The position numbers were made by a program, and so were the translations under genes. From positions 2,132-66,131 of the forward strand of contig JBIKUD010000004.1 of NCBI GenBank assembly GCA_044347745.1: 64,000 nt of DNA. Direction: 5' to 3'. The notes beneath the pieces are model-generated. The model saw only the letters and a program-made list of their open reading frames with translations, searched no databases and had not been told where the DNA came from. Of the stretch, positions 1,231 through 61,632 are shown one piece after another. This DNA is from Bdellovibrionota bacterium. Its GTDB lineage: Bacteria; Bdellovibrionota_C; UBA2361; JAFLCA01. Positions within the stretch are counted from its first letter, which is position 1, and each line of letters begins with the position of its first letter.

Positions 1231-3012
1231 TTAAGCAGCGCTCTTGCTCGCCGCTTTATCTACATTGTAATTTCGTGCACGCGGCTTAATGTGCTTAATG
1301 TCAACTTCGGCATACGAAATCTTCGGCCCCTCCTTGGTCCACTTGGCCATGGTCGTTTTCAGCCATTCGCTGTCATTACGCTCGGGGTAATCCGGCTTAT
1401 AATGAGCACCGCGGCTTTCATTTCGAAGTAATGCCCCCGTCGTAATAACTTCAGCAAGCTCAAGCATATTCCAGAAGTGATTTACAAAAAGTACTTCTTG
1501 ATTGTAAGCCGAAACTTTTGAATTAATGCCGATCGAGGCGGCTTTCATTTTAAGTTCTTTAATCAACTGAACGGTTGCTGCAAGGTCCTTGTTGTTTCGA
1601 ACTACAGTCACGTTGTTCGTCATCGCTTCGCCAAGAATTTGGTGAAGTTTGTACACATTTTCGGAACCCTGCATCTTGGAAATTGAACCAATTACTTCTT
1701 GGCGCTTCTTAAGCTCTGAGTTAAACACCGACTCGTCAACATCAGCGGTGCGCCGTTTTAGTCCTTTGCAATAGGACAAAATCTTCGGCCCACCTTTTAA
1801 TCCGTCGAAAGTGCAACTAAGGAGGGCGTTTGCACCAAGACGATTTGCACCGTGGTATTCATAGTTACATTCACCACCAGCAAAGAGCCCCGGAATTGAG
1901 GTCATGAGGTTATAGTCAACCCAAAGACCTCCCATGCTGTAGTGCATGCCCGGAAAAATACGCATTGGAACTTTGCGTGGATCTTCACCAACAAAGGTCT
2001 CATAAATTTCTAAGATGCCGCCGAGGCGACGATTTAAGAAATCTGTCCCAAGGTGACTGAGATCGAGATAGACCTGATTTTCTCCGTTAACGCCAAGCTT
2101 CTGACGCACACAGACGTCGAAAATTTCGCGGGTCGCAATATCTCTTGGAACCAAATTTCCGTACGCAGGATATTTTTCCTCAAGGAAGTACCAAGGCTTC
2201 CCGTCCTTGTAGGTCCATACTCTTCCGCCTTCGCCACGAGCCGACTCACTCATAAGTCTGAGCTTGTCCAGTCCTGGAATGGCCGTGGGATGCACTTGAA
2301 TAAACTCGCCGTTACCAAAGGTGGCGCCTTGTTGGTATACAGCTGAAGCGGCAGTCCCCGTGTTTACAACAGAGTTTGTGGATTTGCCAAAGACAAGTCC
2401 CAGTCCGCCTGTGCACATAAACACAGCATCGGCCTTGAAGCTCTTCATCTCCAGAGTTTTGACATTTACCGCAACGATTCCTCGGCAAACGCCTTCGTTA
2501 TCAATAATTGCCGACTGAAATTCCCAGAACTCAAATTTTTCAACCTTTCCCTCAACTTCACGTCGGCGAACTTGCTCATCCAATGCATATAAAAGTTGCT
2601 GTCCCGTGGTGGCGCCAGCAAACGCAGTGCGATGGTGTTTGGTTCCGCCAAAACGTCTAAAATCTAAGTTGCCTTCTTCGGTTCGACTAAATGGCACCCC
2701 CATGCGATCAAAGAGAAAAATAATTTCGGGAGCCATGGCGGTCATCTCACGCACCGGCTCTTGATTAGCTAAGAAGTCCCCACCATAAATAGTGTCGTCG
2801 AAGTGCTCTTGGATGCTGTCGCCTTCACCTTTAATATTTACTGCAGCATTGATGCCGCCCTGAGCGCAAACCGAGTGGGATCGCTTTACGGGAACAATCG
2901 AAAATATTTTTACCTTGGCGCCCATTTCGGCAAGCTTCATCGAGGCCGCAAGTCCGGCCAATCCGCCGCCAACTACAATGACTTCAAACGCAGACATGTT
3001 TCTATGCTCCAA
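1231..3012 (-). CDS. sdhA: Succinate dehydrogenase flavoprotein subunit
   Basis: N-terminal FAD-binding GxGxxG (VIVVGGGLAGLAAS), covalent-FAD His region (RSHSVCAQGGINAA), 593 aa; between sdhC and sdhB. Confidence 0.95.
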   Translation of the reverse strand: MEHRNMSAFEVIVVGGGLAGLAASMKLAEMGAKVKIFSIVPVKRSHSVCAQGGINAAVNIKGEGDSIQEHFDDTIYGGDFLANQEPVREMTAMAPEIIFLFDRMGVPFSRTEEGNLDFRRFGGTKHHRTAFAGATTGQQLLYALDEQVRRREVEGKVEKFEFWEFQSAIIDNEGVCRGIVAVNVKTLEMKSFKADAVFMCTGGLGLVFGKSTNSVVNTGTAASAVYQQGATFGNGEFIQVHPTAIPGLDKLRLMSESARGEGGRVWTYKDGKPWYFLEEKYPAYGNLVPRDIATREIFDVCVRQKLGVNGENQVYLDLSHLGTDFLNRRLGGILEIYETFVGEDPRKVPMRIFPGMHYSMGGLWVDYNLMTSIPGLFAGGECNYEYHGANRLGANALLSCTFDGLKGGPKILSYCKGLKRRTADVDESVFNSELKKRQEVIGSISKMQGSENVYKLHQILGEAMTNNVTVVRNNKDLAATVQLIKELKMKAASIGINSKVSAYNQEVLFVNHFWNMLELAEVITTGALLRNESRGAHYKPDYPERNDSEWLKTTMAKWTKEGPKISYAEVDIKHIKPRARNYNVDKAASKSAA

Positions 3013-3676
3013 AAATGAGACTACCTAATTGGCCGAGGATACTTTGCTTCATGACGAAGGCTGAAACGATATCAAGCCCAACCGCACAAAGGACTATAAA
3101 GATACCCACCGAAGCACAGGCCAAACGTTTTTGCGCTTCCGCAGAACGCACAAGGCCCCAGGTAATAGAAAAACTCCAAATACCGTTAGCAAAGTGATAG
3201 GTAACCGCTATTATTCCCACCACATACAGAGCCATAATAAGAGGCTGCGACAACATGGCCTGCATATCAGCAAAGGTAATGTGATCGCCCTTCACAAAAA
3301 GTGCCCACCCACGAGTGGTTGCCACATGAACTGCGATATATACAAAGGCTATGATACCACTAAGGCGCTGTAGCAAATATGCCCAGTTTCTTCCGTATGG
3401 GTAATGCACCACGTTGGGGCGTGAAGACGCTGTGATAAAAAGCCCAAATACGGAGTGAAATAAAATGGGTAGCAATAACAACCCTATTTCAAGCGCATAC
3501 AGATACGGCATTGAAGCAATTTTTTCTACTGTCTCATTAAATGCCTCGGGCCCCCGGCGGGCCGAAGCATTCTCAAAAAAATGGAACAATAAAAATCCAC
3601 CAATGGGCACTAAACCTGTCAGCGAATGAAGACGCCTGAACAAGAAATACCACTCATCACGACTTGGCATGCTCAT
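3002..3676 (-). CDS. sdhC: Succinate dehydrogenase cytochrome b subunit (single large membrane anchor, type-B-like)
   Basis: 224-aa polytopic membrane protein with conserved His residues, immediately upstream of sdhA with 11-bp overlap. Confidence 0.7.
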   Translation of the reverse strand: MSMPSRDEWYFLFRRLHSLTGLVPIGGFLLFHFFENASARRGPEAFNETVEKIASMPYLYALEIGLLLLPILFHSVFGLFITASSRPNVVHYPYGRNWAYLLQRLSGIIAFVYIAVHVATTRGWALFVKGDHITFADMQAMLSQPLIMALYVVGIIAVTYHFANGIWSFSITWGLVRSAEAQKRLACASVGIFIVLCAVGLDIVSAFVMKQSILGQLGSLIFGA

Positions 3677-3682
3677 AGAATC

Positions 3683-5729
<2,047 letters not shown>

Positions 5730-9766: not shown

Positions 9767-10663
9767 CTACTCAGCTTTGTTGGCTACGCCCCAATTTAAC
9801 TTTCCACGTAGTATTTCAAAGTATGTTTTACGTGGAGAGCAGGCGAATTTAAGCAAATTATCGGCTTGTTTAATACGCACCCGGTCTCCGGTCTCTAGCT
9901 CTATTGACACCTGACCATCGACTGAACACAGCACCTTGCCGCGACAGAGAGGCACGCGTACTTCAATGCGTGAGTTCATGCCCACAATCAAAGGCCGGCT
10001 TGTCAAGGAATGAGCACAGATTGGTGTTACCAAAAACGCACTTACTTCTGGATGAACAATTGACCCCCCAGCTGCCAATGAATAGGCTGTCGAGCCCGTC
10101 GGCGTAGCCATTATTAGTCCATCGGCTCTAATTCGAACGAGATCCTCACCATCTACAGCCAAATCAAGATTAACAAGCGGAGCCTTGCTGCTCTTTTGAA
10201 TTACAAAGTCGTTCAGCCCTTGCGAAGAAAAAATACAAGTCTCTTTACCATCCTGCAGACGATGCACTTCTCCATACAGCATGCGCCGCTGCGCCGTTGG
10301 AATTGGAGTATTCTTTTCAATCAACGATTTTAAGGCCGGCATTAATTCGTGCGGGGTTAATTCAGTGAGAAACCCAAGCGTTCCAAAATTAACGCCAATC
10401 AGTAAGGGACTCAGTTTTGTAACATAGCGCGCGATGCCAATCATGGTGCCATCGCCACCAAGAATCACAATGGGATCAGCCTGAGTTGCTAACTGGTAAG
10501 CAGGAACACCAGGCACTCCGAGGATGCGGGCGCTAACATCATCCGTTTTTACTTCAAGCCCAATTTTTTTGGCCCAAGCAATAACTTCACGCCCCAGCTC
10601 TTCAGCCGCAGCAATATCAGACTTTACAACTAATCCGAGCGGGCGCCTCACTTCAGCACTCAT
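9767..10663 (-). CDS. nadK: NAD(+) kinase
   Basis: GGDGTMIG motif and NAD kinase length (298 aa); immediately upstream of recN. Confidence 0.9.
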   Translation of the reverse strand: MSAEVRRPLGLVVKSDIAAAEELGREVIAWAKKIGLEVKTDDVSARILGVPGVPAYQLATQADPIVILGGDGTMIGIARYVTKLSPLLIGVNFGTLGFLTELTPHELMPALKSLIEKNTPIPTAQRRMLYGEVHRLQDGKETCIFSSQGLNDFVIQKSSKAPLVNLDLAVDGEDLVRIRADGLIMATPTGSTAYSLAAGGSIVHPEVSAFLVTPICAHSLTSRPLIVGMNSRIEVRVPLCRGKVLCSVDGQVSIELETGDRVRIKQADNLLKFACSPRKTYFEILRGKLNWGVANKAE

Positions 10664-13971: not shown

Positions 13972-15285
13972 ATGAAAACCAATGCGTTTAATCGCCGCAT
14001 CAAAGCTTGTCTCACAATTCTAAAAAGTAGCGTCAATCAAAGCGCACTGCTGCTCTCTTCGCATCCACCCGTCATACGTAGCCATGACACCCATTATCCA
14101 TATAAACAACAAAGCGACTTCTACTATCTGACTGGTTCAGAAATACAGAATTCGGCCCTGCTAATATCGAGTAAGTTAAAACACCCCATACTTTTTGCGC
14201 CTCCGCAAGATGCACACAAGACACTTTGGGAGGGGAAACAACCCAATCCAAAAATATTGGCACAGCAAATAGGAGCAGAGCTTAAAGTAGCGAAGGACAT
14301 GAGAGCGGAAGTGCTTGCGGCGCTTCGTGGGCACGATCAGTTATTGTTTCAGAACATACCGGGAAGTCTTAGTTTCAAAATTACAAGTGAACTTATTGCC
14401 ATACCTTCCTATGCCCGAGGCAATTTACCATCGCAGTTCAGTCACTCCGATGTACTTCTGGAACGCCTACGGCTCTTTAAAGATGCTGAGGAAGTGGAAA
14501 CTATTAGAGCCGCTAACGAGATTACTTCAGAGGCACTTTTGTTTGTAGCGGCAAAAATCCAACCGGGACAATTTGAATATGAAGTAGCGAGAACCCTTGA
14601 GTACATTTTTGGCATGAACAAATGCTCCCCTGCGTTCAATTCTATCATTGCCGCCGGTAAAAACGCAGCCACGCTACACTACGAGGCGCTTAATTCGAGG
14701 ATCGGCAAAAATGATATGGTACTGATTGATTCAGGAGCTCAACTAGATAATTACTGTGCCGACATTACAAGAATGCTCCCCGCCAGCGGGCAATTCAGCC
14801 CAATCCATAAATGCGTCTACGAGACAGTTCTGGCGGCACAATACGCAGCTCTGAAAAAAGTGAGGCACGGGGTGAAAATAGCTGAAGTGTACAACGCGGC
14901 AGCTGAGGTTTTAGTGGAAGGACTCTGCGAGCTAAAGGTGCTGCGTGGCACTCGCAAATCGATTATGAAAAATAAAGCCTTTAAACCCTATTTCCCACAT
15001 GGAATTGGGCATAGCCTAGGGCTTGATGTCCACGACCTCAGTCAATTACGTGGGAACAATGAGGCCGTGCTGGAAGCCGGCATGGTTTTCACTGTTGAAC
15101 CCGGCTTATATTTTGCGAAAGCCCAGGGGCAAGTTCCCGCTTGCGGCGTGCGCTTAGAGGACAATGTACTTGTAACAAACAAAGGCTGCGAAATCTTAAG
15201 TCCAGGGTTCCCTAAAGAGACGGATGAGATTGAGGCGCTAATGGAAGCACATGCGTTCGCCGGGAAAAACCGAGAAACGCTTTAA
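13972..15285 (+). CDS. Xaa-Pro aminopeptidase (M24B family)
   Basis: M24 metal-ligand motifs ([15 protein letters not shown]; [13 protein letters not shown]; EPGLY) with N-terminal creatinase-like domain; last ~14 codons and the stop lie inside repeat-element copy 1. Confidence 0.85.
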
Positions 15286-15739
15286 ATTGCCGGAAGTTGA
15301 GCTCGTAAGGAGCCCAAAATAATTGCAAGGGCAAATCGATTTCGAGCTCAATTCCTTTCAATTATTCAATCGTTTTAAATATGCCCACCCCAGCCGCGCC
15401 ATGCGCGGCTCCCCTGAAAGGGGTGTGCGTTCATACTTTGTTCCGAAGCTCGGGACCTTATTGCGAGGTGCCTCTACGGCAGGAAAGCATTCGGCCCACA
15501 GAAGGACTCACGAAAATAGCCAGTAAGCGAGGCCTAGCGAAACTTGAGCGAGGCAAGGATGCAGGGTCAAAAAGCGCGGAGCTGTATCTATTTGGGATAC
15601 AGCGAGCACATTTTGCCCCGAAGACGCAGCATCGCTCGAGTAGCAGCAGGCCGTAGCTCTGGATATTATTGTGAGCCCTTCTATACTTCGCGCCTCGTCT
15701 GAACGCATTTTGCCGACGAACAGAAACATAAAAGAGCTG
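15254..15739 (-). repeat. Copy 1 of a 4-copy structured repeat element (minus orientation), with ~190-nt internal expansion in hairpin 1
   Basis: Shares GCGTTCAGACGAGGCGCGA...GGAACAAAGTATGAACGC core (rc at 15427-15706) and terminal sequences nearly identical to copy 4 (15254-15300 rc vs 61846-61890; 15700-15730 rc vs 61647-61680). Confidence 0.8.
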
Positions 15740-15771
15740 CGTTTGCCTTAAGACTTTGCCAAAACTAAATT

Positions 15772-17499
15772 CTACACGGTGAGCACATGCGCAATAATCT
15801 TCTTTCTAAACTCCTCGAAGCCAACTCTCTTGAGCGCCGAAACTGCTACTGCATCATACTGTGCTGATAGATTTGCCACGATCGCTGGATCTTGAGCATC
15901 AATTTTATTAAGCACGTTCACTATGGGAGTATTTCCAAGCTCCATAGTTTGTAGCGTCGCTTCAACCGCAGCTTTCTTTTCAGCTACTTCGGGGTCAGAG
16001 GCATCCAGCACGTGCACTAAAACCGCAGCATCGTATAGTTCCTCAAGCGTGGCTCGAAATGCCGTGCGAAGTTCTTCAGGTAAATCGCGGATAAAACCTA
16101 CGGTATCGGAGAGAATAACGGGAGCTAATGTTACCTGCCCTTCTGGTCCGATTTGATTGAGGGTTATGCGCCGCTGTGCCGGATCAAGGGTGGCAAATAA
16201 TTTATTCTCAGCAAGTACCGTGCTTTGGGTTAAAGCATTAAAAAAGGTACTTTTACCTACGTTGGTGTACCCAAGAATTGCCACAAGCGGGACTCCCCGA
16301 TCCTGACGTTTACTTCTTCTGAGGTGGCGTTGCTCCCCAAGCTTATCTATTCGTCGTTCTAGGTCGACGATACGATCACGAATGCGTCTGCGGCCAATTT
16401 CTAATTTTGTTTCACCTGGTCCCCGACCACCAATTCCACCACTCAAGCGCGAAAGCCCAGTATCTTTTTCAACGAGACGAGGCAGATTGTACTTAAGCTG
16501 GGCAAGCTCAACCTGCAAGCGACCTTCGCTACTCGTCGCTCGTTGAGCGAAAATATCCAAAATGAGCATGCTCCGGTCAATAACTTTAAGATCAGTCATT
16601 TTGGTAATAATGCGCCATTGTCCTGGCTTTAGTTCTCCGTCAAATATGAGCATTTCAGCGCCAAGGGCGAGACAACGGAGTACCACTTGCTCCAATTTGC
16701 CCTTACCGAGGAGCGATCGAGGATCGGGGGTTCGTCGCTGCACAAAGGTATCGACGATGGCAACTCCCGCAGTGCGGGCCAGCTCACGCAGTTCAAGCAT
16801 CGAACTTTCAACCGCTTTCGCCGATTTTTCGTAGACACCAACGAGTACTGCTTTGACTCCCTGCACCTCTTTTGCGCTTGATTGCATCGCCTGAAGCTCG
16901 GCTTCAAGCTCTGCCAAAAACTCAGCGCAATTAAACTCAAAGCGACCTAAATCTGGAACTTTTTCGGTGCGTGAAAGGGGGTCGGCTTCAAGCCCAGGGG
17001 GAACTATGTAGGCATAAGCCATGCTCGTTTTTTTCTCGTCCCCTTTCAACGAAACTACCATATCAAGGCGCAGCTTATGCAAATCGGTGAAATGGTCTTG
17101 AGGGATTTGAGGTTCAGAAGTACTCGTTGACAAATCACTAAACAAGAGTCGCAGGCGTCGCAGGCGTCCGGGCCCTAATCGGTAACGTCCCAAATCAGGA
17201 AGATACAAAATTTCGCGTGAACCAATAAAAACCTCCTCTACTCGCCCCTCGCGAGAAACAAGCATACCGATGCGGCGTTTTATGGTGTGTGCGGCGCGCA
17301 AAATTTCACGTGCTACATCCAACGGCACAATCTCATCGCTTGAAAAACGACGGGAAAATAACTTTTGCACCATGCGAATTTCGCTTGGACTAAGTCCTTT
17401 GGTATTACCTTCAATATTCTGTGACATATTATTTTGAGCGTCCTTTTTTGAGGCTGGCCGAACGGGCATTCTAGTCGCGGCTTCAAATAAGCCAAGCAA
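15772..17499 (-). CDS. hflX: GTPase HflX with long N-terminal extension
   Basis: HflX N-domain and G-domain (GYTNVGKSTFFNALT, DTVGF); 575 aa vs ~430 typical. Confidence 0.85.
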   Translation of the reverse strand: MLGLFEAATRMPVRPASKKDAQNNMSQNIEGNTKGLSPSEIRMVQKLFSRRFSSDEIVPLDVAREILRAAHTIKRRIGMLVSREGRVEEVFIGSREILYLPDLGRYRLGPGRLRRLRLLFSDLSTSTSEPQIPQDHFTDLHKLRLDMVVSLKGDEKKTSMAYAYIVPPGLEADPLSRTEKVPDLGRFEFNCAEFLAELEAELQAMQSSAKEVQGVKAVLVGVYEKSAKAVESSMLELRELARTAGVAIVDTFVQRRTPDPRSLLGKGKLEQVVLRCLALGAEMLIFDGELKPGQWRIITKMTDLKVIDRSMLILDIFAQRATSSEGRLQVELAQLKYNLPRLVEKDTGLSRLSGGIGGRGPGETKLEIGRRRIRDRIVDLERRIDKLGEQRHLRRSKRQDRGVPLVAILGYTNVGKSTFFNALTQSTVLAENKLFATLDPAQRRITLNQIGPEGQVTLAPVILSDTVGFIRDLPEELRTAFRATLEELYDAAVLVHVLDASDPEVAEKKAAVEATLQTMELGNTPIVNVLNKIDAQDPAIVANLSAQYDAVAVSALKRVGFEEFRKKIIAHVLTV

Positions 17500-28660: not shown

Positions 28661-29815
28661 ATGGAAGTTAGACCCTATCAGCAGTGCACCGCCTGCGTCA
28701 TGGATACCTCAGATTGTGACATCAGCTTCGATGCCTGCGGAGTCTGCAATCACCATCTCGAATATTTACAAAAATCTCGCTATGCCTGCTCCCCAGAAGA
28801 CAGGACTCGTAAACTCGAGGCCGCTGCCGCACGTATTCGTGAAAGCAGAGGTGCCAAGCAGTATGACTGTGTACTCGGTTTAAGTGGTGGGCTTGACAGC
28901 TCCTATTTGGCTCTACTTGCCCATAGATTAGGGCTTCGCCCCCTCGCTATCCATCTCGACAATGGTTGGAATTCAGAGTTGGCTGTCGACAACATTCAGA
29001 AAATTGTTCAAAAACTCAAATTAGATTTAAAAACGGTAGTCCTTGACTGGGAGACTTTTCGAGAGCTGCAACTTGCTTTCCTTAAAGCATCGGTTGCTAA
29101 TGTTGAAGTACCCACGGATCACGCAATTTTTGCATCGTTGTATCGTAGTGCGGCTGCCGAGGGACTTCAGTTCGTCCTGAGCGGCAACAACATTGCCACT
29201 GAGTCAATCCTCCCGCCTTCCTGGGGTTACAATTTTATGGATTTGCGCCACATTAAATCCATCCACCACCGCTTCGCCAAGCGGCCTCTTGGCGACTACC
29301 CCACACTCTCATTGCCCCGTTATTTGTACTACCGCTACCTAAAGCGAATTCAGAAAATACCGCTGCTTAATTATGTAGACTTTAATAAAAAAATTGCTAT
29401 CCAAGAACTACAGTCAGAGTTTGGATGGCGCGACTACGGATGTAAACATGGAGAATCGAGGTTCACCAGATTTTTCCAAGGCTATATTCTGCCGAAAAAG
29501 TTTGGCTTCGATAAACGACGTGCACACTACTCTTCGCTTATTGTTTCGGGTCAGATGACCAGGGGCGAAGCGTTAGAGCTTTTAAAATACCCCCCGCTTG
29601 CTGAAACAGAACTGAACATCGAAAGGCAATATGTACTAAAAAAACTCGAGCTTTCTGAGCAAGAATTTACTGAAATAATGAAACAAGCTCCCAAACGCGC
29701 CGAAGAATACCCATCGAATGCCGGGCTTTTAAAAATTTTCGCACAACTTAAGCGGGAAAAACTTCAGAAAAATCTTGGATCGTATGTCCCTCAAATCGAT
29801 CAAGCTTCCCTTTAG
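28661..29815 (+). CDS. N-acetyl sugar amidotransferase, WbuX/WbpG/PseA family (PP-loop ATPase), paralogue 1
   Basis: N-terminal 4-Cys cluster (CTAC...CGVCNHH), PP-loop LGLSGGLDSSY, ~62% aa identity to the ORF at 48340-49488. Confidence 0.8.
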   Translation: MEVRPYQQCTACVMDTSDCDISFDACGVCNHHLEYLQKSRYACSPEDRTRKLEAAAARIRESRGAKQYDCVLGLSGGLDSSYLALLAHRLGLRPLAIHLDNGWNSELAVDNIQKIVQKLKLDLKTVVLDWETFRELQLAFLKASVANVEVPTDHAIFASLYRSAAAEGLQFVLSGNNIATESILPPSWGYNFMDLRHIKSIHHRFAKRPLGDYPTLSLPRYLYYRYLKRIQKIPLLNYVDFNKKIAIQELQSEFGWRDYGCKHGESRFTRFFQGYILPKKFGFDKRRAHYSSLIVSGQMTRGEALELLKYPPLAETELNIERQYVLKKLELSEQEFTEIMKQAPKRAEEYPSNAGLLKIFAQLKREKLQKNLGSYVPQIDQASL

Positions 29816-44163: not shown

Positions 44164-44493
44164 GAGCGTTTTTCGGATTTTCACGGAGAACGGGCGCTGT
44201 TTGAATGGGGCGTTTTTGCCCGAGGGATGAATCGAGTTTTCAACTCTTAGTTTCTCGTTCTCCCTCAAAATGCGTTCAGACGAGGCGCGAGGCTTGTGTG
44301 GCAACCGAGTGGTACAGAATGTACCTCGCAGGGAGCCTCCAAGCCTCGGAACAAAGTATGAACGCAACGAAAAGCGCATCCAGAATTGCAAGGGATTGAG
44401 CTCTTGGTGCCCCCTTCCCTGCAATGATCTAGGGCAAATCACGAGCTCAACTCCCCGCAATTCAGAGCGTTTTTCGGATTTTCACGGAGAACG
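44164..44493 (+). repeat. Copy 2 of the structured repeat element (plus orientation), flanked by perfect 29-bp direct repeats
   Basis: DRs GAGCGTTTTTCGGATTTTCACGGAGAACG at 44164-44192 and 44465-44493; hairpin 1 at 44272-44365, hairpin 2 at 44396-44450. Confidence 0.85.
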
Positions 44494-45281
44494 AACCATT
44501 TAAAGGGGATACACGGCTTCCTATACAAATGCGGGGGTATCTTATCTGCAATTTCAGCGTGAAACTCGGGAAGTTTTGACCAATGCAGTCCGGGTTTTAC
44601 ATGATGAGCTGTATGATACCCCAAGTTGCCGGTGCAGAGATTATAGGTTGGATGCATTATATTATAAGAGGCTTCATACTCATTAGGGGTATCTAATCCG
44701 GCGTGATGATAGTAAGTGTGCCAACAAGTGGCGATGTATCCCCAAGTCATAGGAAGCCAAAACACAAACAGCGCAGGCAAAGGTCTTTGCACGGTCAAGA
44801 GAAGCAGCACACAAGCCACAAGGAATGTCGCGCTTAGAAATCCGCGTTGGTACTTTGGATGCTGTCTTCCTACTTGAAAAGCTCGCCAATACCCCGTTGC
44901 CGCGATGGTAAGTGTATACTCAACGGCACCCATAGTGGTGCCGTCTTTACGCTGCCATCCTGACTCGTCTTTCTTTTGATCGGTGTAATTAATGTGATGA
45001 CCCAGCACGTGGTGCAATACCCAGGCGTTTGTCGTAATGCCTGTGTGCAAGGCATACACTATTTCGAGCATCCGATTCAGAATCAAAGATTTAAAGGTCG
45101 GAAGATGCTGGTGATGGTGATTCCAGGAGCAAATACAGGCCTTTGGGAAGAGCATTAATACGAACCAGAAGCTTAAGTACCAAGGTGAATCAACGAGGGC
45201 GTACACCAGCAAATCAAAGGCAAATAACCCCACTATAATAATAGTGGGACAACGGTCAGCCTGATAACGAAAAATGCCCAT
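44439..45281 (-). CDS. Membrane fatty-acid-desaturase-family (di-iron His-box) protein
   Basis: His boxes HHQHL, HHVLGHH, HTAHHVKP; start set to internal Met to avoid 90-bp overlap; last ~20 codons and stop come from repeat copy 2. Confidence 0.6.
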   Translation of the reverse strand: MGIFRYQADRCPTIIIVGLFAFDLLVYALVDSPWYLSFWFVLMLFPKACICSWNHHHQHLPTFKSLILNRMLEIVYALHTGITTNAWVLHHVLGHHINYTDQKKDESGWQRKDGTTMGAVEYTLTIAATGYWRAFQVGRQHPKYQRGFLSATFLVACVLLLLTVQRPLPALFVFWLPMTWGYIATCWHTYYHHAGLDTPNEYEASYNIMHPTYNLCTGNLGYHTAHHVKPGLHWSKLPEFHAEIADKIPPHLYRKPCIPFKWFVLRENPKNALNCGELSS

Positions 45282-45295
45282 ACTACATCCTAAAC

Positions 45296-46765
45296 CTAGG
45301 TTCCCACCGCGCTTAGTACACTTGACGCTTGCTTGGACCACTGCCCCCGGCCAAGCGAAGTCAATTTCATTCGGCGGCGATGCCAATGACGGGTAAGCTC
45401 GTGGGGCGTGCCAACAAATATCGTCGGATCGCTTAACTGCGATTGCAATAACGCTAAAAAACTATCGGTAAAACCAGCAAAAAGCCATTGGTTGCATCCC
45501 GTTTCCGTATGCCAATCAACCACGGCGCAGAGTCCCCTCTCCTGAATTAATTTAAGTACATGCATTGCTGCTTCGAGCGCAATTCCTTCATCGGAAAATC
45601 CTCTTAACTTTGCATCTGCTGTTGGCAAGACGTGTTTCTCGAGCAAACAGGTTGGAAACACATACATATCAAGCGGTTTTTCCCGTTCAAGGTCATATGG
45701 TCGGTACGGTAAGGCAGTGCCAGCCCGAAATCCTGGAATATCTCTCCAGGCAATCGACATGTCATAGCGAAAGCCAGCATTTACATGTTTTCTATGCGTT
45801 CGATGCGGTTTTTCCCAATCAAGAGCCCAGTAATGATGCCGCAAACCCCAAATGGGAGTTTCAAGTTTCTCCTCCAAAAACTTTTTGGCATGAATGAAAT
45901 AATCCAAAGATTTTTTAGCCTCGATACCTGCATGCAACCCAAACTCCCAGCCCTGCTGGCTCAAGGTTCTTAGCGGCTGCCAAAGCGCATCATCTGTTTT
46001 GGGATGAAAATAACTTTTACAATCATTCAGAGTTCTATGAGTGCCAAAAGCCGCTGTAGAGAGCAAAAAGCAAGACTTGGCAGCAAACTGATTCTCAAGG
46101 TCGGCCCAATTTTGGAAGCAAAAATAAGGATCCTGAATAATCGGGGCCCGGCGCGCTTTAAGACTTGCCCAGAGTAAATCTTTGTAAACCGGCAACCGGC
46201 GTCGAGCCCATTTCGCTACCAACGCACATAGTTCGTTCATAGACCCAAGTTGAAGGGCGTCGGTGTCATGTGTAACAACGAGGGCAGATTTTTTTCCTCC
46301 TGGCCAAAGCGTTTCGGTTTCGCCGAGGAGATTTTCGTACCTCGCTTTAAACGCCAAGGCACACTCATCAACCAGCGGACGGGCAGCAACCGCCTGCCTC
46401 CACTCAGGAAGCACAGAGGAATAGAATATTCCGCGATCATCACGGCAGTTCTCTCCAATTTCTTGCTCATCTAAGAAAGTGAGCAAGCGAAAAGTCAGGC
46501 CAATACAATCGAAGCCAGGCTCAAGGTAATTTTGGTAAGCTTGCCGAAGAGTTGCCGATAATTTTTTTTCGAAATACCATTCAGGCTCACAACGAATTAC
46601 TTCCTTCCCGCTCAGCGCAGAACAGTTGGAATTTGTGTAGACCCAATGAGCAGACTCGATAGTATCTTCTAATTGCAGGGCCACTCCCAGCCTGAGCGCA
46701 AATTCCTGCCACGCATATTCAACGCGCGGTCTTAGTTGTGAGGGAACATCAATAAAAAGCTTCAT
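45296..46765 (-). CDS. Hypothetical protein (possibly carbohydrate esterase/deacetylase-like)
   Basis: 489-aa ORF in the polysaccharide locus; motif VVTHDTDA and His-rich segments; no confident family. Confidence 0.45.
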   Translation of the reverse strand: MKLFIDVPSQLRPRVEYAWQEFALRLGVALQLEDTIESAHWVYTNSNCSALSGKEVIRCEPEWYFEKKLSATLRQAYQNYLEPGFDCIGLTFRLLTFLDEQEIGENCRDDRGIFYSSVLPEWRQAVAARPLVDECALAFKARYENLLGETETLWPGGKKSALVVTHDTDALQLGSMNELCALVAKWARRRLPVYKDLLWASLKARRAPIIQDPYFCFQNWADLENQFAAKSCFLLSTAAFGTHRTLNDCKSYFHPKTDDALWQPLRTLSQQGWEFGLHAGIEAKKSLDYFIHAKKFLEEKLETPIWGLRHHYWALDWEKPHRTHRKHVNAGFRYDMSIAWRDIPGFRAGTALPYRPYDLEREKPLDMYVFPTCLLEKHVLPTADAKLRGFSDEGIALEAAMHVLKLIQERGLCAVVDWHTETGCNQWLFAGFTDSFLALLQSQLSDPTIFVGTPHELTRHWHRRRMKLTSLGRGQWSKQASSVLSAVGT

Positions 46766-48216
46766 GGTACACTCTTACTGAGCTGAGAACGAAGATTCAA
46801 GGCCCGCCAAGCCCACCATGCGACCATACACAACAACGCAAGGCAAAATTGGATCAGCACTGAATCTAACACGAGCGAGAGCAACACGAGAATAAAAAGC
46901 GAACTGCCCAAGCTCATGAGAATTGAGGCACCCAATGCAATCAAAGCTGTAACAGGCATGCCCGCGTAGGAATAAATAAACCAAAGATAAGCAACATGAT
47001 ACAAGACCGCACACACGGTAAATGCCTGAACCACCACAAGAGAGCTCCCGCCCCCAGCTAACAACAGATAGACAACAGCCATATTTATTAAATCAGCAAC
47101 AAGCTGCAACAAAAAGACCACCCGCTGTTTGCCCGCAACTTCAAATATACGCTCTGGCCAGCTCGTGAAGGCTAAACAATAGCCCACCACAGCCATCACA
47201 CTACAAAAAGTTCCCGCTTGGGCCCATTGCTGCCCCATCAGCAAAGGGAAGAGCTGCGGAGAAAACCACACAAGCAGCGCGAGCCCCGGAGTAGCAAACT
47301 CTGCCAAAAGCTGCATCAAACGTCTCGTCAGCTTTGTAAACGCTTCAGTACCTAAAGAAAGCGCAGCTTCCCGAAAAAATACCCTCCCCAGCGATACCGA
47401 AAGGACCGCCATCGGCGAAAAAAGCAAAGTGCGACAAAGCGCAACGTAACCCGCATCAGCATTTCTCCCAAACGCCAATAAAAAGACCGCCAAAAATCCG
47501 CCCGAAAAATTAGTAAGCAAAGAATGTGGAATATTGTAGAGCGGGAAAGCGCGGTAGTACCAAGCTACCTGAGACAGATACCCGAGCTGTCTCTTGCGAT
47601 TTTGATAGATGCGCTGACATTCGGCGGTCAGTTGGCGCCAGAGTGGAAGTAGGCCCACAAAGCGCCCTGCTGCATGGCCCCAGAGTAGCCCCGTGCTGCC
47701 AAGACTAGCGCAACCGATTTTGCCGGCGGCTGAGGCCAACTGCATAAGGAGCATATTTTGGGACAAGCTAGCATAGCGCTCTTTCCGATTGAGCACATAC
47801 GAGCCAAATTCGGCCAGACCGACCACTGCGACTGTCAGTGGTAAGGCGATAAGCCAAGTTGAAGGTACAAGCTGAACGTAATAAAATCCTATCAAAAGCA
47901 GAGCAAAGAGGATTAGAGATAAAGTTATCACCAATCCCACCCCCATACAGGTCACCGCAGAAGCCCGACGCGGATTACGTGGAAGCAGCACCGCAAGCTC
48001 ATAGCGTCCGGTAACCACAGCCCCGCATAGCCCGGCTGCAAGCATAAAGGCAGCATAGTTACCAAAGGCTTCTGGAGAATAGAGCCTCGATAAAATGGGT
48101 AATACCGCAAAAGGGACGAGCTGGGCACACACCGAGCCCGTAAGTAGCACTGCCGCCTTCTTTAAAAGCGTTCCCATAGAACGGGTATTGGTGTTGACGT
48201 CGGTGTGCGAAAGCAT
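46762..48216 (-). CDS. Wzx-like polysaccharide flippase (MOP/PST family)
   Basis: ~12-14 TM helices, 484 aa, polysaccharide-biosynthesis-protein N-terminal pattern. Confidence 0.75.
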   Translation of the reverse strand: MLSHTDVNTNTRSMGTLLKKAAVLLTGSVCAQLVPFAVLPILSRLYSPEAFGNYAAFMLAAGLCGAVVTGRYELAVLLPRNPRRASAVTCMGVGLVITLSLILFALLLIGFYYVQLVPSTWLIALPLTVAVVGLAEFGSYVLNRKERYASLSQNMLLMQLASAAGKIGCASLGSTGLLWGHAAGRFVGLLPLWRQLTAECQRIYQNRKRQLGYLSQVAWYYRAFPLYNIPHSLLTNFSGGFLAVFLLAFGRNADAGYVALCRTLLFSPMAVLSVSLGRVFFREAALSLGTEAFTKLTRRLMQLLAEFATPGLALLVWFSPQLFPLLMGQQWAQAGTFCSVMAVVGYCLAFTSWPERIFEVAGKQRVVFLLQLVADLINMAVVYLLLAGGGSSLVVVQAFTVCAVLYHVAYLWFIYSYAGMPVTALIALGASILMSLGSSLFILVLLSLVLDSVLIQFCLALLCMVAWWAWRALNLRSQLSKSVP

Positions 48217-48339
48217 CTTAGTGCGTAGGCCAATTCCCAGAATTATTGAGACCTGATGTTTTAAGTAAAAAAACTATTGAGCCCCTAGCCTACTCTTAGG
48301 ATATAGTTAGCTCAATCACTTATCCGCCCTTCACAACTC

Positions 48340-49488
48340 ATGAAAGCGTACCAAATATGTAATTCCTGTGTCATGGATACAAGCGATCCTCAGATTCGCT
48401 TCGATTCTCATGGCGTATGTAATCATCATGCTGAATATGCCGACACCTGCGCCTCTCAGCTTTTGCCCTCTCCCGCCCGTGAACAGGCACTTGAGCGTGT
48501 CGTTGCTCAAATGAAATCTGAAGGTAAAGGCAAACCGTATGACTGTGTCTTGGGACTTAGCGGCGGCGTAGACAGCTCCTACATGGCGCTACTGGTGCAC
48601 CGACTCGGACTACGACCTCTCGTCGTGCATTTTGATAATGGATGGAATTCAGAGTTGGCAGTAAGCAACATAGAAAAAATCCTCACCAAACTTCAATTTG
48701 ATCTCGAAACTTATGTCGTAGACTGGGAAGAGTTTAGAGATTTACAAGTCGCTTTCCTCAAAGCATCAGTTGCGAATGCTGAGTATCCTACCGATCATGG
48801 GATATTCGCCTGCCTCTACCGCTCCGCCGCCAAACACGGAATTCGTTATGTGCTGAGCGGGAGCAATCTACAATCGGAGGGGATTCTTCCTGCCAGCTGG
48901 GAATATCACTACATGGACTATCGCCACCTTCGGGCTATTCACGCTCAATTTGGCACTCGACCACTTAAGACGTTTCCCACACTTAGTTTTAGCCGCTACC
49001 TTTATTATTTCTACGTTAAGCGACTGCAGAAGGTACGGTTATTGCAGTTTGTCGATTATCACAAAGAATCCGCTATAGCTGAATTAAAGAATTTTTTTGA
49101 TTGGCGTTATTACGGCGGAAAACATTACGAATCGTTGTTTACAAAATTTCATCAAGGTTTTTATCTTCCTAAAAAATTCGGAATCGACAAGCGCCGAGCC
49201 CATCTTTCATCGTTAATAGTCTCGGGGCAAATAACGAGAGAGGAGGCCCTGAAGGAGCTAGAAAAGCCGGCGTATCCAGAAGCCGAATTGGAAACTGACC
49301 TAAACTACATGCGGAAAAAGCTGGAACTAAGCGAAGAAGACTTCAGCCAAATCTTAAATTCGAAACCTAGGGCCTATTCCGAATACCCCAACAATAATAA
49401 GTTGTTCGAATTTTTGCGCTCAGGTCGTTCAAATCTTCGATCACTGATCCAGCACCGGCAAAACACATTCAATCCAAAGCCGGTGTAG
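48340..49488 (+). CDS. N-acetyl sugar amidotransferase, WbuX/WbpG/PseA family, paralogue 2
   Basis: Same 4-Cys N-terminus and PP-loop LGLSGGVDSSY; nucleotide stretch GGAATTCAGAGTTGGC shared with paralogue 1. Confidence 0.8.
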   Translation: MKAYQICNSCVMDTSDPQIRFDSHGVCNHHAEYADTCASQLLPSPAREQALERVVAQMKSEGKGKPYDCVLGLSGGVDSSYMALLVHRLGLRPLVVHFDNGWNSELAVSNIEKILTKLQFDLETYVVDWEEFRDLQVAFLKASVANAEYPTDHGIFACLYRSAAKHGIRYVLSGSNLQSEGILPASWEYHYMDYRHLRAIHAQFGTRPLKTFPTLSFSRYLYYFYVKRLQKVRLLQFVDYHKESAIAELKNFFDWRYYGGKHYESLFTKFHQGFYLPKKFGIDKRRAHLSSLIVSGQITREEALKELEKPAYPEAELETDLNYMRKKLELSEEDFSQILNSKPRAYSEYPNNNKLFEFLRSGRSNLRSLIQHRQNTFNPKPV

Positions 49489-49491
49489 TCG

Positions 49492-50280
49492 ATGAAACTT
49501 GCCCTTCTTGGAATGCCAGACAACGACAACACCCGCCAATTTAGGCTGTACTTAGAGTCTGAGTTTGCGGACTGGGAACTCTCAGTAATTTATTGGAAGC
49601 CTGATTTTAGAAATCAGCTTCAAAGAACCCTGCGTAAGCTCAGACTGGCTGGTGCAAAGGCCACCACTCAGAGAATTTCTCAAGCACTCAAAATTAAAAA
49701 ATCGAGACGGAGGAACGAGCAATTCCTAAAATACGCCGATACAACAAAAGAGTTTTGGGTATCCCATCATAACTCCGAGCACTGCGCCGAAATTATTATA
49801 AAGCAAAAAATCGACCTGGTTCTGCTCTCAACCGATGCTATTTTAACCAAAAAGGTACTGAGAGCCCCTCGACTACTCACCCTGAATGCTCACCCTGGAC
49901 TCACCCCCCGCTATCGCGGGCTTGGCTCCCTTTTTTACATGCTTCAAGATGGGCTACAGCCGGTAGTCAGCGTTCACGCCGTCGACGAAGGTATAGATAC
50001 AGGGCCGCTTTTATATCGAGAAGTGGTGCCGGTTGACCCCAAAACTGGCTTGGAGTCTATAGTGAACACCGTGCTTACGCAGCGACTTTCTATTGTTGGC
50101 AAAGTATTGCGTGCTATCGAGTTAGATGGTCCCACATATCAAGATACCTTCTTAGAGCAAAGTGCGATGACCAGAGGCATGCCACTTGCCGAACGACAAA
50201 ATCTCGACGAAGCATTAAAAACCGGAAAGATACAATTAACTCTCCCCCAGCATGAGTTTCAGGATAATTGGGCGCCCTGA
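49492..50280 (+). CDS. Formyltransferase-domain protein (sugar N-formyltransferase-like)
   Basis: Formyl_trans_N signature NAHPGLTPRYRGLG (cf. HPSLLPxxRG). Confidence 0.7.
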   Translation: MKLALLGMPDNDNTRQFRLYLESEFADWELSVIYWKPDFRNQLQRTLRKLRLAGAKATTQRISQALKIKKSRRRNEQFLKYADTTKEFWVSHHNSEHCAEIIIKQKIDLVLLSTDAILTKKVLRAPRLLTLNAHPGLTPRYRGLGSLFYMLQDGLQPVVSVHAVDEGIDTGPLLYREVVPVDPKTGLESIVNTVLTQRLSIVGKVLRAIELDGPTYQDTFLEQSAMTRGMPLAERQNLDEALKTGKIQLTLPQHEFQDNWAP

Positions 50281-50417
50281 TTTTCTAAACGCCGTTTAAT
50301 TTACTGTTGTCAGTTGAACTACGCACATGTAAATATTTTTCTAGTTCCCGTGCGCTGTGCGAAGCTACTGCATCATTATAGAGAACGCACCGAGCTTGAG
50401 GTTTAAAAAGGTAGGCT

Positions 50418-52340
50418 GTGGTATCTCGATTAGAAACTCTCCTCATTCGTGTTAGACTCCCCCTCATTCTGTGCCTAGGGCTTATTCTTACCTCCCTCAG
50501 CTACACCCTAGCCTTAGGCCTACGCTTTGATTTTGATTGGAACGAAGTATTTCTTCTCGATCGCTTTTTATTGCCCTGGAGCCTCCTTCTTTTTTATCGG
50601 GCAGCCAGTTATTCGTTTTTTCAATTAAATCGCGGTTATTGGCGTTATGCTTCAACTCAAGACCTTATAGACATCATTAAGGCACACGGGCTTTCGAGTC
50701 TATTTTTAACCGCAACAGCTCTATTTTTGCGTCTGGAAGAATTCCCACGCTCCGTAGTTCTTATAGAACTCGCCATTTCGATTATATTTTGTGGCGGTAG
50801 CCGATTGGCAGTCCGTGTATTAGGTGAGCGCCTCGTGGCCCAGCAAGATATGGAGGAAGATACTGCCCGAGACGTAATCGTTATCGGCGCTGGTGATTCA
50901 GGGCATCTTATAATTAAAAACATGCTCAGTTTAAAGCGACTCTCGTATAGACCCGTAGCAGTGTTGGACGATAGCGACAATCTGCAGGGAGTCAACTTGT
51001 ACGGCGTGAAGGTAGTTGGACGAATCACTAATCTCGAAGAACAACTAGAAAAGTTTCCTAGAGTCAGCGCAGTTATTGTAGCAATTCCCACAATTTCGAA
51101 TACGCGTCTTCGCAGCATTGAGGCAGTTTGCAAAACCTTTGGAGTGGCACTTAAAAAACTCCAATCATTTGAAGATATCGCTTGCATCGACGCCTCTGTT
51201 AAGCACGAGGGCGTAAGCATCGAACAGGTGCTTGAAAAGAAAACTCAAATTGAACATGAAGATGAAATTCGTAGAGAACTGAATAATCGCACCATACTGA
51301 TTACCGGAGCTGGCGGCTCTATTGGTTCGGAAATTGTGCGCCAGGTCTGTTATTTTGACCCCCATAAAGTGGTACTTCTCGATAGCTCTGAATACAATCT
51401 CTTTCGAATGGAGCGAGAACTACACACAGCCTTTGAGCGTGGAGGAAAAAAAGCTGAATTCCGCTGCGTAGTGGCAAATATTGTTGATGCCGCGAGACTA
51501 AGCAAAATTTTCAGTTCCGAAAAACCTGAATATGTCTTTCACGCCGCAGCCTATAAGCACGTGCCACTTATGGAGCATAACTGCTACGAGGCCTTTCGTA
51601 ATAATGTAATTGGCACCAAAAATGTACTGGATGCCTCAGTGCAGTTTGGAGTGCGGCGCTTTGTGCTTATCTCCAGCGACAAAGCTGTGGCTCCGTCAAG
51701 CATTATGGGATGCTCAAAGCTTTTGGCTGAACTGCTCGTACAATGGTACTCGCATACCCAGCAAACCACAGCTAGCAATCACCCACTTGCCACCTCAATC
51801 GTCCGCTTTGGAAACGTGATCAACAGTACAGGCAGTGTCATTCCGATATTTAAAGAGCAGATTTTAAGTGGTGGTCCTGTGACTATCACCCACCCAGACA
51901 TGGAGCGCTATTTCATGTCTATTCGTGAAGCAGTGCGTCTTGTGCTTACCGCAGGGACTCTCGGTCAGAAAGGAGAAATTTATATTCTCGACATGGGACG
52001 CCCGATGAAGATTGTAGATGTAGCGCGTAAAATGATGGCGCTCTACGGTCGCCGCGACATTGAAATTGAGTACACCGGCATGCGGCCTGGGGAAAAGCTC
52101 ACGGAGGAGTTACTCACCTCGCATGAACTACGGGGACCAACTCGGTTTGATAAAGTAAACAGAGTGCAAAACTTTGAGCCACCAAGCATCGACATTTCTC
52201 GTTGGGTACTGGAGGTAGAACAAAAGCTGCCACGCCTCTCTGATACCGAGATACGAGATCTCATGTTTACGCTTGCGAATACTGCCTGCCCTTCGGCATC
52301 TCCAGTAGCGCAACCAAAGACAACAGCCAAAGTTGCCTAG
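50418..52340 (+). CDS. Membrane-anchored UDP-N-acetylglucosamine 4,6-dehydratase (WbpM/PglF/CapD family)
   Basis: Four N-terminal TM helices, then short-chain dehydrogenase ILITGAGGSIGSEI and CapD-type catalytic region; 640 aa. Confidence 0.85.
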   Translation: MVSRLETLLIRVRLPLILCLGLILTSLSYTLALGLRFDFDWNEVFLLDRFLLPWSLLLFYRAASYSFFQLNRGYWRYASTQDLIDIIKAHGLSSLFLTATALFLRLEEFPRSVVLIELAISIIFCGGSRLAVRVLGERLVAQQDMEEDTARDVIVIGAGDSGHLIIKNMLSLKRLSYRPVAVLDDSDNLQGVNLYGVKVVGRITNLEEQLEKFPRVSAVIVAIPTISNTRLRSIEAVCKTFGVALKKLQSFEDIACIDASVKHEGVSIEQVLEKKTQIEHEDEIRRELNNRTILITGAGGSIGSEIVRQVCYFDPHKVVLLDSSEYNLFRMERELHTAFERGGKKAEFRCVVANIVDAARLSKIFSSEKPEYVFHAAAYKHVPLMEHNCYEAFRNNVIGTKNVLDASVQFGVRRFVLISSDKAVAPSSIMGCSKLLAELLVQWYSHTQQTTASNHPLATSIVRFGNVINSTGSVIPIFKEQILSGGPVTITHPDMERYFMSIREAVRLVLTAGTLGQKGEIYILDMGRPMKIVDVARKMMALYGRRDIEIEYTGMRPGEKLTEELLTSHELRGPTRFDKVNRVQNFEPPSIDISRWVLEVEQKLPRLSDTEIRDLMFTLANTACPSASPVAQPKTTAKVA

Positions 52341-52409
52341 GCGCCATTTATTTCCGATATCGCCGCAGCGAAGTCCCTGTGGATATTAAATTTTATAAGG
52401 AGCCCCTGG

Positions 52410-52688
52410 ATGGGGTGCTCTACCCCCTGCGTACTTGGACTTTCTTTAGAGCACTTAGTGGCATATACTAAGCAAATGGGTGGCGATAGTTTTTCATTTT
52501 GGCGTTTCGACTTGGCTCAAGTCTTGAAGGCGCTTTTTGTTATTTTGCTTCTTAGAGGCATTACCATCTTGTTGGGTTTTGAGCAGCAAGTGCCAATTGT
52601 TGACGACATTCTAAATGTGCTTGTTAATGCGGCTAAGGTGATGGCAGAAGCGATTAGTGGGTTTGTGCGCGGCCGCACAAGCTTCTAA
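52410..52688 (+). CDS. Small hypothetical membrane protein (92 aa), doubtful
   Basis: ORF ending exactly at repeat copy 3; hydrophobic stretch; no homology recognised. Confidence 0.25.
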   Translation: MGCSTPCVLGLSLEHLVAYTKQMGGDSFSFWRFDLAQVLKALFVILLLRGITILLGFEQQVPIVDDILNVLVNAAKVMAEAISGFVRGRTSF

Positions 52689-52689
52689 G

Positions 52690-53029
52690 CGCGCTGTGAA
52701 AAACGTAAAAATGCTTTAAATTGCAGAAATTCCGGCTCGAGAAAAACAGGACTCTCTTGACGGATAATTTGTAGCTCGAGCCCAATTCCTTGCAATTTTG
52801 GCCGCATTTTTACTCGCGTTCATACTTTGTTCCGAGGCTCGAAGTCTCCCTGCGAGGTGCATTGAGCACCACTCAGTCGCCATCAAGCCTCGCGCCTCGT
52901 CTGAACGCATTTTGACAGCGCGCTCAGAAAACAACTAACTCGCCTTGCACGATTTTCAAGAAGCCCATCTGTTTTTGTAAATCTTAAATACGCGCTGTGA
53001 AAAACGTAAAAATGCTTTAAATTGCAGAA
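52690..53029 (-). repeat. Copy 3 of the structured repeat element (minus orientation), flanked by perfect 39-bp direct repeats
   Basis: DRs CGCGCTGTGAAAAACGTAAAAATGCTTTAAATTGCAGAA at 52690-52728 and 52991-53029; hairpin 1 rc at 52816-52908. Confidence 0.85.
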
Positions 53030-53043
53030 GTTCTTCTGCTCGC

Positions 53044-61549: not shown

Positions 61550-61585
61550 AAGCGTCACTGTGGTTATATAAGTGGTAATAAAAAA

Positions 61586-61611
61586 GGGCCCTCTCCGGGG
61601 CCCTTTCTATT
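61586..61611. terminator. Rho-independent terminator (bidirectional type)
   Basis: AAAAAA-GGGCCC-tctccg-GGGCCC-TTTCTATT: perfect 6-bp GC stem flanked by A-tract and U-tract. Confidence 0.55.
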
Positions 61612-61632
61612 AAAGTAAAGCCTTGAGGCGAA

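Follow-up and report, generated by a model that had tools for sequence, protein, structure and literature searches.

A putative mobile repeat at gene 3' ends of a Bdellovibrionota bacterium and the C-terminal tails it appears to supply

Whether the last codons and the stop codon of a gene belong to that gene or to a repeat inserted at its end is the question raised by an M24 aminopeptidase gene of a Bdellovibrionota bacterium, which lies on a stretch of 64,000 nt (the window; contig JBIKUD010000004.1 of GCA_044347745.1, positions 2,132-66,131 of the forward strand, with coordinates below counted within this stretch unless another contig is named). Copies of the repeat were sought by repeat finding within the window, multi-copy alignment, nhmmer and a covariance model of P3, one of its hairpins, and they are described in the common orientation of the aligned copies, in which the sharply defined end is the left end. 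Our analysis suggests, with a probability of roughly 80%, that the repeat is a lineage-specific, non-coding, non-autonomous mobile element that was inserted at gene 3' ends, and that the new C-terminal tails of the neighboring proteins are by-products of its insertion.

The M24-HflX junction with and without the element

The M24 / aminopeptidase P gene (13972-15285, plus strand; Pfam AMP_N and Peptidase_M24, with the M24 domain ending at residue 403) encodes 437 aa and is followed by an HflX-type GTPase gene (15772-17499, minus strand; Pfam GTP-bdg_N, GTP-bdg_M and MMR_HSR1). The closest homologue of the M24 protein in the protein collection was P0001, which is 92% identical, has 429 aa and is encoded on a 7.3-kb contig of a relative (L001, Logan SRR30274993). 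The gene order on L001 is as in the window (thioredoxin-like gene, L31, thioesterase, M24, HflX), and its M24 gene (2179-3468, plus strand) and HflX gene (3419-5230, minus strand) are convergent, element-free and overlapping by 50 nt. Within this overlap (L001 3419-3468, corresponding to ~15200-15800 in the window) the 16-17 C-terminal codons of each gene are antisense to the other gene.

Alignment of the L001 and window DNA showed unbroken homology on both sides of a segment of 526 nt found only in the window. The L001 junction reads …ATGGCAGAACATGCG^CAATAATCC…, and the window junctions read …ATGGAAGCACATGCG[TTCGCCGGG…526 nt…CTACACGGTG]AGCACATGCGCAATAATC…. The empty site in L001 has AGAACATGCG once, whereas the insert in the window is enclosed by a perfect pair of AGCACATGCG, the left one at 15246-15255 and the same 10-mer on the right at 15782-15791. 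Copy 1 (15256-15781, plus strand), which has no counterpart at the L001 site and could be aligned to the other copies, is thus a proven insertion with a duplication of 9 or 10 bp of the host target, the last G of the left duplication being possibly the first base of the element.

The insert entered the M24 gene after codon 428 (GCG, Ala) and ahead of its native last codon, codon 429 (CAA, Gln). The M24 protein ends with …EALMAEHAQ in L001 and with …EALMEAHA followed by FAGKNRETL in the window, where codons 1-428 are native and the element supplies codons 429-437 and the stop; the gene has therefore lost one residue (Gln) and gained nine element codons and a stop (15256-15285, plus strand, with the TAA at 15283-15285 and the boundary taken from the L001 alignment). 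The right end of the same copy has re-tailed HflX, which ends with …FRKRIIAHVL-PLTPQSHPSL in L001 (a tail listed as …IIAHVLPLTPQSHPSL) and with …FRKKIIAHVL-TV in the window, a loss of 10 residues and a gain of two. The element-encoded HflX end (15772-15781, minus strand) comprises a TAG at 15772-15774, the V and T codons and the first base of a straddling Leu codon. The HflX protein of a more distant relative carries yet another unrelated tail, which indicates that the replaced HflX segment is unconserved. As read from the aligned sequences, both M24 and HflX now terminate translation at stop codons inside the element.

The original prediction had ascribed the last ~14 codons and the stop of the M24 gene to the element; the stop was assigned correctly, and the count is reduced to nine codons, since EAHA is native according to L001. 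Its proposal that the real C-terminus is element-derived, for which comparison with an element-free allele had been suggested, was borne out when this comparison was run for M24: L001 is without the 526-nt insert, its M24 protein ends with …HAQ, and this orthologue does not share the FAGKNRETL tail. Insertion into or immediately after the coding sequence had also been expected, and the M24 gene was indeed hit between its penultimate and its last codon.

Copies of the repeat and their gene junctions

A near-identity of the copy 1 end to the copy 4 end at 61846-61890 had been noted before and was reproduced by direct comparison, in which 15254-15298 and the reverse complement of 61846-61890 shared 41/45 identities; what had been labeled the right end becomes the left end, with its sharp boundary, once the copies are placed in their common orientation. 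Repeat finding further gave inverted matches between 15255-15327 and 61817-61889 (84% across 73 nt) and between 15254-15330 and 44417-44493 (79%), along with direct matches of the copy 1 block to 52679-52732 and to 52980-53033. The four copies in the window were alignable along ~250-300 nt, far beyond chance. Copy 2 (44164-44492, minus strand) consists of a unit at 44193-44492 and a repeated left-end fragment at 44164-44192, copy 3 (52689-53033, plus strand) of a unit at ~52689-52979 followed by a repeated flank and left-end fragment at 52980-53033, while copy 4 (~61615-61889, minus strand) has a sharp left end at 61889 and an uncertain right boundary, where it adjoins a hairpin at 61586-61603. 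The basic unit is ~270-330 nt, and copy 1 is longer (526 nt) through two extra internal segments.

The remaining two copies were reached through the spurious reading frames of the element. An earlier protein search with concatenated spurious element open reading frames (ORFs) gave no match, and when one such ORF, of 77 aa in copy 2, served as the query of an exhaustive HMMER search, a single related "protein" of 65 aa came back. The contig that encodes it (L025, ENA ERZ27272043 k141_1544303), a second one from the same sample and species, carries copies 5 and 6 (copy 6 at L025 16467-16788). This brings the count to six copies in ~94 kb of this species, four in the window and two on L025. No further copy was found in a 9.6-kb extension of the window, and none was found by nhmmer and the P3 covariance model in ~50 kb from relatives at 66-92% protein identity, where the single nhmmer match, in a relative's contig (L002), was a chance match within a gene. 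Searches with two invariant 20-mers of the element were similarly sparse. An exact scan of genome contigs gave no match for one of them and two matches for the other, both of which were chance matches inside a coding gene of unrelated metagenome-assembled genomes, and the exact scan of viral contigs gave none. In metagenome contigs both counts were zero, a result with little bearing on distribution, since the collection evidently omits JGI 3300033980 and 3300044626, from which contigs of this species were retrievable by protein look-up. A blastn search of copy 4 against plasmids and phages gave no match.

The element ORFs are short and unconserved, their frame varies between copies, and they have no homologues except other copies. 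[quoted passage not shown] The element-tailed M24 gene, the element-tailed desaturase gene described below and copy 4 are present in independent JGI, ENA and Logan assemblies, and the occurrence of the same junctions in independent assemblies argues that they are not assembly artefacts. Copy 4 is identical base for base across eight independent assemblies, and the cross-strain comparison, all eight assemblies being identical, thus gave no allele free of copy 4.

A second re-tailed gene is found at copy 2. The fatty-acid desaturase family gene (44439-45281, minus strand; Pfam FA_desaturase; 280 aa in public assemblies, with an ORF reaching 45386) ends with …PCIPFKWF-VLRENPKNALNCGELSS. Its putative element-encoded tail, VLRENPKNALNCGELSS and the stop (44439-44492, minus strand), begins at the first base of the element (44492) and comprises 17 codons at 44492-44442 and a TGA at 44441-44439; about the first 28 nt lie within a 29-bp direct repeat (44465-44493, identical to 44164-44192) and the remainder in the 5' arm of the first long hairpin. 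An identical protein (P0121) is present in 12 contigs, and none of the other desaturase homologues found was more than 70% identical. The conserved sequence shared by more than 50 homologues extends to …P(F/L)xW, corresponding to …PCIPFKW in the window; beyond it, the homologues either terminate within 2-4 residues or continue into unrelated tails that reach ~25 residues. The element origin and the element stop that the original prediction had given to the desaturase are upheld by these homologues, whose sequences and lengths diverge right after …PFKW, and its figure of ~20 codons encoded by the 29-bp repeat is to be replaced by 17 codons, with only ~28 nt of them in the repeat. The gain of 17 probably element-derived codons is thereby supported, on family comparison.

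The desaturase and M24 tails are read in different frames of homologous element sequence, the left-end block is non-coding in copies 3, 4, 5 and 6, and translation entering the left end meets a stop within 2-33 codons in every frame, which argues against a dedicated coding function. The tails would thus be incidental read-through in different frames and not a coding module or a conserved peptide.

The other copies are also placed closely against gene ends. A 70-aa gene (MGGDSF…RTSF; 52476-52688, plus strand) has its TAA at 52686-52688, abutting the first base of copy 3, and the 71-aa orthologue of this gene in relatives ends with …RTSFN in place of …RTSF. The 92-aa ORF at 52410-52688 is probably this same 70-aa gene with its start at 52476, as indicated by the 71-aa orthologue and the onset of DNA homology. 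On the other side, the repeated fragment of copy 3 ends 10 nt from the stop of a CNNM gene. The left end of copy 4 lies 10 nt past the stop of a DUF465 gene (61900-62130). Between a 144-aa ORF and the right side of this copy, an A6-GGGCCC-N6-GGGCCC-TTTCTATT hairpin at 61580-61608 resembles a bidirectional intrinsic terminator and was missed by the consensus terminator scan. Copy 5 comes after a terminator-like hairpin downstream of a 50-aa gene. A gap of 4 nt separates the TAG of an AMP-binding gene from the start of copy 6, whose flanks GAGTAGTGAG / AACTAGTGAC form an imperfect duplication (7/10, with TAGTGA exact). The ~60-nt 3' tail of copy 6 shares homology with the copy 1 tail all the way to the duplication, which places this tail within the element. 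In general, five of the six copies are set between convergent genes and the remaining one stands directly behind a stop codon, and all of them occupy nearly the whole gap from one flanking stop codon to the other. Shared orientation with the gene upstream was dropped as evidence, being automatic for any element between convergent genes.

Fold of the element and competing explanations

Single-copy folding gave z-scores of -4.6 to -7.4, and the predicted consensus fold is a three-way junction with a closing stem P1, a ~33-bp hairpin P2 and the long hairpin P3. P1 is formed by a 12-14-bp inverted repeat, in which the left terminus GTTCGCCGGGAAAA pairs with TTTTGCCGACGAAC, an arm that lies ~60 nt inside the right boundary set by the duplications of copies 1 and 6. 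Three variants of P1 were observed, namely GUUCGCCGG/CCGACGAAC, GUUCUCCGUG/GAGGGAGAAC and GCGCGCUGUG/GACAGCGCGC. Across four copies 93.5% of cells were paired, and 12 pairs were changed on both sides in comparison to 4.0±1.5 in column shuffles (0/500 reached 12) and to at most two double-sided changes in controls with slid partners; with six copies, 18 of the 78 pairs were compensatory. According to this covariation, the three-way-junction fold is maintained by compensatory changes. Two stretches of ~25 nt at the base of P3, forming the internal core GCGTTCATACTTTGTTCCGAGGCT … CCTCGCGCCTCGTCTGAACGCATTTT, are invariant in all six copies, and in most copies P2 stands between an A5 and a T5 run. 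Neither strand folds better than the other, and a preference for one sense strand, suggested by 17 G-U against 6 A-C cells, was gone once the reverse-strand fold and six copies were taken into account (~18 against 16 across the six copies, hand-counted from the per-pair table).

The two extra segments of copy 1 sit at structurally tolerant places, at the junction and inside P3. The first (15380-15425, plus strand) is 46 nt at the three-way junction, forms two small hairpins and is a gap in the other copies. The second (15506-15685, plus strand) is likewise confined to copy 1 and forms a long hairpin of ~180 nt within P3. It is bounded by inverted termini of its own, AGAAGGACTCACGAAAATA / TATTATTGTGAGCCCTTCT, occurs nowhere else in the window and may be another small element nested in copy 1.

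Under the favored explanation, a mobile repeat inserts where gene 3' ends overlap or nearly meet, and since there is no spare DNA in such junctions, the insertion removes one or more terminal codons from a gene. The ribosome then reads on into the element up to the first in-frame stop and produces a new tail, which would persist as a neutral by-product because only poorly conserved C-terminal residues are displaced. The element would be mobilized in trans by an enzyme encoded elsewhere, for which a DDE-type transposase making staggered cuts would be the simplest fit to the 9-10-bp duplication. Survival mainly at 3' junctions could be explained if insertions elsewhere in a compact genome are deleterious, and the conserved fold may be needed for mobility, for a role in the 3' untranslated region (3'-UTR), or for both.

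Several observations weigh against this explanation. A clean duplication and an empty site are available only for copy 1, copies 2-5 having no convincing duplication, and no close element-free allele of the desaturase gene was found. There is no clear terminal inverted repeat: the right arm of P1 is subterminal, and there is little likeness between the left end and the true right termini (…CACGGTG, …AATGAAC). The termini vary, in a compensatory manner, while the core is invariant, and a transposase that recognizes termini predicts the opposite. The left end is directly repeated in three of the six copies, which goes beyond simple cut-and-paste, and no autonomous partner with the same ends was detected in the window ORFs scanned and on L025. 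The name MITE-like is used in place of MITE in the strict sense, which would call for terminal inverted repeats and an autonomous partner.

The first alternative is that the blocks are a functional structured RNA or 3'-UTR module, for example a bidirectional terminator, an mRNA stabilizer or a small RNA, which spreads and is retained for its service to the flanking genes and whose read-through is tolerated. The maintained fold, the two invariant internal stretches, the A-run and T-run around P2, the identity of copy 4 in eight assemblies and the setting of five copies between convergent genes and the sixth directly behind a stop would all be expected of such a module. The searches offered it little: in Rfam 15 the tRNA-Glu alone passed the gathering score in the window, and E-value scans of copies 1, 2 and 4 gave weak hairpin noise only, with no match to a family or to a self-cleaving ribozyme, so that membership in a curated Rfam family was rejected. 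Promoter and terminator scans gave nothing above shuffled expectation, although the terminator scan, with its loop limit of 8 nt, cannot capture P2. In addition, the equal folding of both strands and the balance of G-U and A-C cells indicate no transcribed strand, translation enters P1 and P2 in copies 1 and 2 and would disrupt the fold, and purifying selection against insertions elsewhere would produce the same enrichment at 3' junctions. As the explanation of the blocks we consider an RNA module possible though not likely; it is compatible with the mobile repeat, as the two are not exclusive.

The direct repeats of the left end are where the next two alternatives start. Besides the 29-nt repeat of copy 2, which is 100% identical, these are the repeats of copy 3 (52679-52732 / 52980-53033, 43-54 nt, ~90-98%) and copy 5 (L025 9845-9871 / 10157-10183, 27 nt, 96%), and the periods are 301, 301 and 312 nt for copies 2, 3 and 5. 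The repeated fragment follows the ~60-nt tail, its end falling between -2 and +15 nt relative to the convergent gene's stop, and the 9-11 nt before it resemble the left host flank weakly (5/10, 7/11 and 5/10). As to their origin, what is left of head-to-tail dimers, or products resembling circle junctions, can serve as no more than leads. It is conceivable, and in our judgment improbable, that the element is a structure-dependent mobile element of a new kind, whose recognized part would be the invariant core within the covarying three-way junction, and which would move by way of an intermediate consisting of single-stranded DNA, of RNA or of a small circle or tandem, leave the left-end repeats behind and prefer stop-codon/terminator junctions as its targets.

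Alternatively, a circular or tandem intermediate or a site-specific recombination could have generated the copies, the left-end repeats being junction or att-like remnants and the 10-bp repeat of copy 1 a microhomology. Three of the six copies are indeed a unit plus a partial left end with the weak flank resemblance given above, no terminal inverted repeat is convincing and the invariant part is internal. However, copies 1 and 6 have no left-end direct repeat, and their right ends, homologous up to the duplication, fit an element with fixed ends; the empty site in L001 has nothing like the left-end motif, and no self-cleaving ribozyme was matched in the Rfam scans. Pfam scans of most of the larger window ORFs, with a few ORFs left unscanned, found no transposase, integrase, other recombinase or reverse transcriptase nearby, and the precomputed Pfam annotation of the first ~11 kb of the window and of L025 likewise contained no mobility gene. 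An origin by this route is rated as doubtful.

Membership in several known classes was considered and rejected. A pair of variable and template repeats as in diversity-generating retroelements (DGR-like VR/TR) would bring a reverse transcriptase and adenine-specific differences, neither of which was seen; an integron attC or a dif/IMEX site does not agree with the size and the dispersed copies; an IS200/IS605-type element would leave no duplication; and a class C group II intron would not be only 300 nt long without a six-domain structure. A REP/BIME assignment does not fit a unit of ~300 nt with three helices, no Y1/RAYT-type gene being seen among the scanned ORFs, and an in-frame element like those of Rickettsia does not fit stops in all three frames and tails in different frames.

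The weakest alternative, in which the blocks are native coding sequence, either a conserved C-terminal module or duplicated gene ends with terminators, can draw on their position within annotated ORFs that public pipelines call coding, and it is refuted by the 92%-identical M24 orthologue without the block and the whole 526 nt in the L001 alignment, by the different frames of the homologous DNA in M24 and the desaturase, by the non-coding state of the block in copies 3-6 and by homologues of both proteins that lack these tails (the second of the pair being …KWFVLRENPKNALNCGELSS).

Some observations on the surroundings of the copies may be added. The region 25624-52340 is largely a cell-envelope polysaccharide cluster, with genes for a Wzy_C O-antigen ligase, a PMT_2 glycosyltransferase (1092 aa), a sugar transferase, a DegT aminotransferase, split transketolase-like genes, a formyltransferase, a CapD-like dehydratase and two AsnB/QueC-like ATP-pyrophosphatase paralogues (28661-29815 and 48340-49488). 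Copies 2 and 3 are inverted, with their left ends inward, around 8.2 kb (44494-52688) of polysaccharide and lipid-modification genes, and copies 5 and 6 are inverted in the same manner around 6.3 kb (L025 10183-16465) of such genes. In relatives (L014, L015 and GCA_041447075.1) the desaturase gene, the 71-aa gene and the CNNM gene are adjacent; the desaturase gene of the window is inverted and stands at the far end of the 8.2-kb block. The arrangement of copies 2 and 3 may represent an element-associated rearrangement or a composite-like unit.

Meaning of the tails and relation to known systems

At least three protein C-termini here (M24, HflX and desaturase) are mobile-element sequence, which is propagated as "protein" in public catalogues and is unsuited to orthology, domain or structure inference. 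One allele-verified insertion has re-tailed two convergent overlapping genes together, and the case illustrates how mobile DNA is absorbed at the 3' junctions of compact genomes and how new C-terminal residues originate. The element is atypical for a textbook MITE in combining an invariant core with covarying variable termini and in its left-end direct repeats.

Insertion sequence (IS) families that transpose by a copy-out route, such as IS30, IS3 and IS256, form head-to-tail dimers or circle junctions that are transient and join complete ends of transposase-encoding elements. The succession of right end, short spacer and left end beside a full copy is a likeness to these junctions and serves as a lead only; unlike them, the element here has only a left-end fragment of 27-43 nt, and its arrangement is stable.

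REP/BIME, ERIC and Correia repeats are intergenic hairpin repeats at gene 3' ends and between convergent genes, which share a transcript with the gene upstream and can influence termination or the stability of the mRNA. REPs are imperfect palindromes of 20-40 nt that often form alternating clusters and are RAYT-linked, ERIC is ~127 bp, and the Correia elements of Neisseria, of ~100-155 bp, duplicate TA and have terminal inverted repeats that are clear, whereas the element described here is ~300 nt with a three-way junction and a 9-10-bp duplication.

Closer parallels are found in the QMITEs of Coxiella burnetii and in the Rickettsia palindromic elements (RPEs). QMITE1 is 300-400 bp and QMITE2 150-190 bp with variable direct repeats of 7-11 nt; both reach 1-50 bp into functional genes at their 3' ends, and QMITE2 supplies the last 33 residues of EnhC in one strain (PMC5896051). 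Like the QMITEs, the element here is a small, non-coding, structured repeat at gene 3' ends with a duplication of comparable length. It differs from them in having no sequence similarity and in being known from sequence alone, in an inverted repeat that is subterminal on the right, where the QMITEs have terminal inverted repeats, and in the left-end direct repeat of three of the six copies. RPEs are ~150-bp palindromic mobile repeats that become part of coding genes and alter their product (PMC10969869). The joining of a mobile repeat to protein-coding sequence is common to both, but RPEs lie in-frame inside genes with a conserved, stop-free peptide, whereas the element here has stops in all frames, is read in a varying frame and replaces only C-terminal tails at gene junctions. 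The re-tailing of gene 3' ends by mini-transposons is thus already known from the Coxiella QMITEs and the RPEs, and the element of this Bdellovibrionota lineage, by the features compared here, appears to be an undescribed MITE-like family.

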